A stretch of 64,000 bases of DNA from Escherichia coli. Its GTDB lineage: Bacteria > Pseudomonadota > Gammaproteobacteria > Enterobacterales > Enterobacteriaceae. A model generated the notes under the pieces. That model saw nothing but the letters and a program-made list of their open reading frames with translations, had not been told where the DNA came from and made no database searches. Of this stretch, positions 7,389 through 7,483 are shown piece by piece. Positions within the stretch are counted from its first letter, which is position 1. Each line of letters opens with the position of its first letter. The translations under genes and the position numbers were made by a program. Where the stretch lies: NCBI RefSeq assembly GCF_003019035.1, contig NZ_CP027447.1. One strand, given 5' to 3'.

Positions 7389-7483
7389 ATTGCCAGCGAT
7401 ATGAATAATCACTTACAGACGTCATCGCCATGACGTAGGGCAAATGAATAACTGGCGCCATTAGCCGTAGCGCCAGTTAAGTA

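Follow-up and report, generated by a model that had tools for sequence, protein, structure and literature searches.

The 95-bp spacer at positions 7389–7483 of the E. coli window (the whole 64-kb stretch of DNA that was analyzed) runs from the stop codon of a small ORF to the stop codon of panC, which is read toward it, and raises the question of whether its repeats record a past rearrangement or simply belong to the ends of two converging genes. The initial annotation had remarked on an 8-bp direct repeat flanking a perfect palindrome, followed by a second hairpin, and had offered two explanations: the scar of a small mobile or recombination event, which would fit the segment being an indel relative to K-12, or paired terminators that serve the convergent transcripts. 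We favor, with good confidence in the explanation taken as a whole, the view that the interval is the common 3′ untranslated spacer of two convergent units, rpnC–rpnC_Ss on the plus strand and panBC on the minus strand. The locus varies in structure between strains; the spacer is an ordinary one of the gene-end kind, already explained, and no real component of it is new in kind.

The genes of this part of the window are arranged in the order panD, rpnC, a 77-amino-acid ORF, panC and panB. The panD gene occupies 5500–5880 on the minus strand, and rpnC (6154–7086, plus strand) matches the Pfam family Transposase_31/YhgA-like with an E value of 9e-87. The 77-amino-acid ORF (7155–7388, plus strand), the stop codon of which (7386–7388) forms the left edge of the spacer, is rpnC_Ss, a free-standing second copy of the C-terminal (RpnS) antitoxin module of RpnC. 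It has no match of its own in a Pfam search, and in other genomes it is named by RefSeq either as an 'RpnC/YadD family protein' or as hypothetical. On the other side, panC (7484–8335, minus strand; pantoate--beta-alanine ligase in the RefSeq annotation), the final gene of panBC, is convergent with the small ORF and ends with its stop codon at 7484–7486. The closest complete genome, that of strain SCU-301, is 100% identical across 701 bp.

A large indel relative to K-12 is present at the locus, upstream of the spacer, and is the published rpnC_Ss polymorphism: the presence or absence of rpnC_Ss, as well as losses of the gene through deletion or fusion with rpnC, was described by Zhong et al. 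(2023, PNAS, PMC10400941). The long form, in which rpnC_Ss is present, is carried by 1,514 of 5,426 complete E. coli genomes, and the length of the small ORF varies across strains from 198 to 234 bp through changes in repeat number. In a pairwise alignment, the 3′ end of rpnC (6879–7084) aligns with the small-ORF DNA (7187–7380), and the similarity runs for about 31 nt beyond both stop codons (7087–7117 against 7389–7419) and ends at CAGA(TAA). The DNA that follows rpnC (7087–7154) also resembles the 81-bp allele of the spacer (see below), with a local alignment score of 32 against a shuffle mean of 16; none of 500 shuffles reached 32. The first third of the spacer (7389–7419, plus strand) is part of this repeated rpnC 3′ module, the homology of which stops at CAGA, at the left edge of the palindrome. 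The 3′ end of K-12 rpnC, together with the K-12 spacer, is colinear with the 3′ end of the small ORF and the window spacer, and the rpnC sequence farther upstream in K-12 aligns with rpnC of the window. The difference between the long and short forms (∼309–320 bp) corresponds to a single period of the repeated rpnC 3′ module (6879–7117 against 7187–7419) and can be placed anywhere in the ∼230-bp homology that precedes the palindrome. Both forms were found with each spacer length class, which indicates that the region recombines freely.

Two further repeats lie in this upstream part. The 3′ region of rpnC (6900–6975) contains tandem 12-bp units (GTAAGACAGGAG-like, encoding QEVR), which represent the four-amino-acid repeats that have been reported to vary among strains in Rpn proteins; the length of rpnC in the strains that were fetched ranges from 873 to 951 bp. 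The 68-bp gap between the rpnC stop codon and the start of the small ORF contains a 9-bp direct repeat, CCAGATAAT, at 7110–7118 and 7135–7143, with the copies 25 nt apart around a GTTAAC palindrome. The first of these copies overlaps the end of the homology (CAGATAA).

The proposal that the spacer segment is itself an indel relative to K-12 is not supported; K-12 is colinear with it save for two 11-bp gaps (7404–7414 and 7419–7429), neither of which is bounded by the direct-repeat sequence ATGAATAA. The spacer occurs in three length classes, of 95 bp (as in the window), 81 bp and 73 bp (as in K-12). The 81-bp class is without the segment ACGTCATCGCC at 7419–7429, which comprises the left arm and loop of the palindrome, and its runs of G and of A are shorter. 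In the 73-bp K-12 class, both this segment and AATAATCACTT at 7404–7414 are absent; the placement of the latter is ambiguous by one base. A single 14-bp gap, as introduced by MAFFT for the 81-bp alleles, was rejected in favor of an 11-bp gap with homopolymer changes, because K-12 then matches the allele of strain 2014C-3338 exactly on both sides. Sixty records, sampled so as to be spread over the 5,440 that matched, comprised 33 K-12-like spacers, ∼14 to 18 of the 81-bp type, three of the 95-bp type and five of the 95-bp type with an insert of ∼200 bp, and eight of the 60 carry the 11-bp segment at 7419–7429. Counts of allele-specific 51-mers place this segment in at most 181 + 390 + 96 = 667 of the 5,426 genomes (∼12%), so that it is missing from ∼88% of complete E. 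coli genomes, those with the 81-bp and 73-bp alleles.

The palindrome (7419–7436) is as first described, with arms ACGTCAT (7419–7425) and ATGACGT (7430–7436) forming a perfect 7-bp stem around a CGCC loop. A stem of this quality arises in 95 nt in 3.9% of dinucleotide shuffles and in 7.3% of natural 95-nt tiles of the window. Its folding energy is −8.4 kcal/mol, a U-tract is absent on both strands, and it was not called by the terminator scan. No further copy with up to two mismatches was found in the 64-kb window. The perfect palindrome is present in at most 181 + 96 genomes by the 51-mer count, and is strain-variable: it occurs in the TUM13936, 2014C-3338, E69 and E. whittamii alleles, while the O157:H7 version, counted in 390 genomes, has the left arm ACGCCAT and pairs at six of seven positions. 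In E. albertii an 11-bp segment is found at the corresponding place, diverged to ATGCTATTGCC...ATGATGT, so that the palindrome is degenerate there, and two other Escherichia species are without the 11 bp. The diverged copy in E. albertii, the most distant species sampled, suggests that the 11 bp are old and that their absence reflects deletion. The 11-bp difference thus appears to be a deletion and not an insertion, as judged from the sequence of this one outgroup. Outgroup sampling is thin: the scan of genome contigs gave eight matches, among which L021 is an unrelated chance match and another is a misbinned E. coli contig, and E. fergusonii was not recovered. The misbinned contig (L017, CALXDF010000219.1) is 4.3 kb in length and was binned as an 'uncultured Oscillospiraceae' MAG. 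It carries E. coli rpnC–rpnC_Ss–panC with a spacer identical to that of strain DP033, and is almost certainly of E. coli origin. With the polarity given by E. albertii, the left arm and loop would be ancestral and would since have been lost from most E. coli.

The 8-bp direct repeat ATGAATAA is likewise present, at 7401–7408 and 7444–7451, one base from the positions first given for it (about 7402 and 7445). The two copies differ in setting. The first lies inside the duplicated module; its counterpart after rpnC reads ATCAGTTA, and in K-12 it is truncated to ATGA. The second reads UUAUUCAU on the panC (minus) strand, where it starts the U-rich tail of the second hairpin (hairpin 2), and is simply complementary to the tail of the predicted terminator and no independent element. 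Perfection of the repeat is conferred by G7446; the nearest alleles have T at this position, which turns the second copy into ATTAATAA. The exact 51-mer spanning both copies (7401–7451) was found in one of the 5,426 genomes, that of SCU-301, whereas the version in which ATTAATAA replaces the second copy has exact matches in 175 genomes; each carrier genome has a single occurrence. An allele-specific 51-mer locates ATTAATAA as the second copy in 77 further palindrome-bearing genomes, and it is also found in the 2014C-3338, O157:H7 and K-12 alleles. The exact match of the two copies therefore hangs on a single base that is private to one lineage. Short ORFs starting from each ATGAATAA (ten and six codons) were considered and dropped, as they are destroyed in K-12 and other alleles.

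The arrangement of repeat, palindrome and repeat is also close to what chance provides. An 8-bp direct repeat is found within 95 nt in 3.0% of dinucleotide shuffles and in 8.2% of natural 95-nt tiles of the window, and two further, unrelated 8-bp direct repeats occur in the surrounding 261 bp. The complete pattern, defined as an 8-bp repeat on both sides of a stem of 7 bp or more and confined to 80 bp, was seen a single time in the window; shuffled 64-kb windows contained 0.53 on average, and 12 of 30 contained at least one. From these comparisons, hairpin 2 alone exceeds chance and the repeat–palindrome–repeat arrangement does not.

It is against this background that the ATGAATAA copies could be taken as a target-site duplication and the palindrome as a remnant of the terminal inverted repeats of a small mobile element. 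The window strain does have an 8-bp direct repeat flanking an inverted repeat, and the spacer is a real target for mobile DNA, with ERIC and IS1 insertions in other strains. However, the repeats do not abut the arms, from which they are separated by 10 nt (7409–7418) and 7 nt (7437–7443). An empty site, with a single repeat copy and a clean absence of 43 bp, was seen in none of 17 distinct alleles, among which the indels consist of 11 bp at 7404–7414, 11 bp at 7419–7429 and homopolymer-length changes. The breakpoints hence do not coincide with the direct repeats, the very finding that had been named as grounds for abandoning a scar. Moreover, the perfect repeat accompanies the perfect palindrome in one of ∼277 genomes, and the palindrome occurs in other alleles without it; conversely, many 81-bp alleles (e.g. 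that of CFT073), representing about a quarter of genomes, hold both ATGAATAA copies and no palindrome. Repeat and palindrome therefore vary independently. The palindrome also belongs to no multi-copy family, being single-copy in the window, and an arrangement of this kind is expected about half a time per 64 kb. We give the mobile-element origin almost no credence, and read the two copies as a chance match within a gene-end spacer.

The genuine insertions in this spacer have a different appearance, with duplications directly at the ends of the element (TA for ERIC and 9 bp for IS1). An ERIC element lies between hairpin 2 and the panC stop codon in O157:H7, CP52E, HS-01, 1217KP, Escherichia sp. 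E1V33 and E. albertii (loci L010, at 1409–1611, L008, L011, L016, L023 and L018), and the window has the corresponding empty site at 7477–7480. The element is 125 bp in length in E. albertii and 196–203 bp in the other carriers. Its identity is supported by matches to the standard ERIC1R and ERIC2 primers with zero to three mismatches, and its ends are terminal inverted repeats (TACTC/GAGTA) directly adjoined by the duplicated TA. No ERIC copy was found in the 64-kb window. The ERIC presence/absence polymorphism looks old, with one site occupied in different species. In E. coli 1217KP (L016, 450–1220) an IS1A is also present in the spacer, 12 nt past the rpnC stop codon, with a 9-bp target duplication, GTCTGCGTT, at its ends.

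The position of the palindrome at the end of the repeated module invites another explanation, in which the palindrome and the 11-bp indel would be a break-and-join site, or a by-product of the creation, removal or fusion of rpnC_Ss, perhaps promoted or cut by the Rpn nuclease. The homology of the flank after rpnC ends at CAGA(TAA), 7416–7419, which is the left edge of the 11-bp segment, and two independent 11-bp indels cluster with homopolymer-length changes within 7404–7443. The occurrence of long and short forms with every spacer allele implies frequent recombination, and Zhong et al. (PMC10400941) speculate that RpnL proteins start the recombination that generates downstream small-protein genes. 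Set against this, the coincidence of boundaries was observed only once and is resolved no better than to a few bases, and the same authors (PMC10400941) describe no defined ends for rpn regions. The palindrome allele is also carried by short-form genomes and species without rpnC_Ss (O157:H7, E. albertii and E. whittamii), which argues that the palindrome is not tied to the duplication. We treat the end of the module at the left edge of the palindrome as a coincidence, and consider a preferred recombination site at this position very unlikely, as we do the break-and-join explanation from which it follows. If it were true, an rpn rearrangement would for the first time have a defined DNA end.

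The palindrome might instead be functional in those strains that have kept it, as a protective stem-loop in the 3′ UTR or as a binding site for a dimeric protein. It is perfect in diverged backgrounds (the TUM13936 and 2014C-3338 types, E69 and E. whittamii), and the arm differences in E. albertii are all transitions, with three of the four changed pairs kept as G–U on the plus strand. Relative to its shuffles, the spacer as a whole is also more stably folded (z = −3.0 for the plus strand and −4.5 for the minus strand). These points are offset by the loss of the palindrome, without replacement, in ∼88% of E. coli, by its broken state in the 390 O157-type genomes and by the weakness of the stem (−8.4 kcal/mol); furthermore, the 17 alleles contain no compensatory change and no Rfam family covers it. 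A function of this kind is, in our judgment, improbable. The palindrome is dispensable, and is better regarded as what would be a deletion-prone piece of the 3′ UTR which, where kept, probably has no required function.

In hairpin 2 (7449–7479), the arms CTGGCGC and GCGCCAG (7452–7458 and 7470–7476) were correctly recognized at first, and the inverted repeat is longer than was claimed: it consists of perfect 10-bp arms, TAACTGGCGC at 7449–7458 and GCGCCAGTTA at 7470–7479, and begins 4 nt past the panC stop codon. Stems of 10 bp are found in 95 nt in 0.04% of dinucleotide shuffles and in 0.6% of natural 95-nt tiles of the window, and no other copy of the hairpin was found in the 64 kb. As minus-strand RNA it has 12 pairs, six of them G–C, a 7-nt loop and the tail TTCATTTGCC, and folds with −18.6 kcal/mol (z = −4.0; none of 200 shuffles was as good); the plus-strand fold is somewhat weaker (−16 kcal/mol, z = −3.2). 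The terminator scan of 6900–7700 returned hairpin 2 on the minus strand as its sole terminator-like site. The minus-strand tail satisfies the U-tract threshold of the scan even though the U-tract is interrupted; measured from the 7-bp GC core, this tail reads UUAUUCAUUU, which corresponds to the second ATGAATAA in reverse complement with two bases added. The plus-strand tail, UUAAGUAUUA, falls short of the threshold.

Conservation of the hairpin was assessed over the 17 distinct spacer alleles, which come from E. coli, E. albertii, E. whittamii and two further Escherichia species. None of the 17 shows any change in the six core pairs, and the outer pairs change only to G–U or are lost. Alignment columns 68–91 are invariant at 23 of 24 positions, as against 19 of 64 in the remaining spacer. 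A covariation test of both stems in these alleles gave no compensatory changes; the divergence is too shallow for such a test, and the conservation stands at the level of sequence only. The loop at 7464 has T in the window and C in all 16 other alleles (CATTAGCC and CATCAGCC, respectively), and G7446 and T7464 are the two spacer changes private to the window and SCU-301. Searches for other elements returned nothing above background: all matches in an Rfam 15 scan of 6800–7800 with permissive E values were far below threshold (the best overlapping scores were 19.8 bits for STnc240, gathering threshold 55, and 12.1 bits for the fluoride riboswitch, gathering threshold 34), and the two promoter-like sites from a promoter scan are at chance level.

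Thus, of the suggested pair of terminators one member is retained and the other is not: hairpin 2 has the anatomy and conservation of a terminator, whereas the palindrome has no U-tract, folds with only −8.4 kcal/mol and is absent in most strains. From its sequence features, hairpin 2 is a probable intrinsic terminator on the panC side, predicted to be leaky, and is possibly bidirectional. RNA polymerase leaving panC would encounter the GC-rich 12-pair stem 4 nt past the UAA stop codon, followed by UUAUUCAUUU, an order typical of intrinsic terminators. On the plus strand the same stem would be preceded by an A-rich tract and followed by the weaker U-rich tail UUAAGUAUUA, and may limit read-through from rpnC/rpnC_Ss into antisense panC. 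Stem-loop-containing bidirectional terminators between convergent E. coli genes have been described (10.1101/2022.10.23.513370, citing Ju et al., 2019).

Published K-12 transcript data suggest that not all transcripts from panC end here. Adams et al. (2021; PMC7815308) report a region of Rho termination at K-12 147,624 on the minus strand (Rho score 16.9, p = 8e-69), where inhibition of Rho by bicyclomycin increases the downstream reads from 30 to 610. This position (K-12 NC_000913.3) is ∼320 nt past the panC stop codon, antisense to yadD/rpnC, and corresponds roughly to window 6830–6900; it follows that in K-12 a sizeable share of minus-strand transcription passes hairpin 2. It also follows that, in K-12, transcripts reading through from panBC extend in antisense orientation into the part of rpnC that encodes RpnC_S. 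In the curated Term-seq table for K-12 from the same study (PMC7815308), no 3′ end is listed at 147,88x–147,94x, which could reflect low expression or the lack of a discrete 3′ end, and the supplements of PMC12207403 have no entries for panC, rpnC or yadD.

These data would also be compatible with hairpin 2 acting as a stem for protection or processing of the RNA 3′ end, or as a site of polymerase pausing or collision, with panBC terminated downstream by Rho. The strong bicyclomycin-dependent read-through at 147,624, the missing entry in the curated Term-seq table and the interrupted U-tract all point in this direction, as do the collision-type bidirectional terminators described for convergent E. 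coli genes (10.1101/2022.10.23.513370). We nevertheless consider it unlikely, since the stem with its U-rich tail is recognized by a standard terminator scan, as is no other site in 800 bp, and partial intrinsic termination with a Rho backup fits the identical data. Such an arrangement is common. Termination on the panC strand by hairpin 2 is therefore retained as the preferred assignment; it is probably incomplete, with Rho serving as a backup farther downstream.

In summary, the 'direct repeat, palindrome, direct repeat' pattern is best read as a chance arrangement private to one lineage, and annotation as a likely terminator is justified for the conserved hairpin that follows panC. The rpnC–panC interval emerges as a small hotspot of structural variation, where rpnC_Ss has been gained, lost and fused and where two 11-bp indels, ERIC and IS1 also occur. 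The finding matters little in itself, but the hotspot may be of interest to researchers concerned with rearrangement of the rpn locus.

Each component can be compared with a known system. The large indel is the identical event to that of Zhong et al. (2023), namely the presence in some strains, downstream of rpnC, of a second module that encodes RpnC_S; the downstream spacer lies outside the discussion in that paper, to which we add that the module carries ∼31 nt of 3′ flank and ends at the edge of the palindrome. The ERIC and IS1 insertions resemble the ATGAATAA–palindrome arrangement in lying in the same spacer and in having direct repeats around an element that ends in inverted repeats. They differ from it in that their duplications abut the element, that they belong to multi-copy families and that empty sites exist, of which the window is one. 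As in quasipalindrome instability, the 11-bp indel removes or creates exactly one arm and the loop, and variants with six and seven of seven pairs coexist in the species; here, however, the flanking microhomology is 1 nt only, the polarity comes from one outgroup and the mechanism is putative. With intrinsic terminators, including the bidirectional ones between convergent E. coli genes, hairpin 2 shares a GC-rich stem-loop right after the stop codon, a location between convergent genes and a sequence conserved across the genus. Its tail on the panC strand is rich in U and the opposite side is rich in A, so that the stem could serve both strands. It departs from intrinsic terminators in its interrupted U-tract, its weak plus-strand tail and the Rho-dependent termination that takes place ∼320 nt farther on in K-12.
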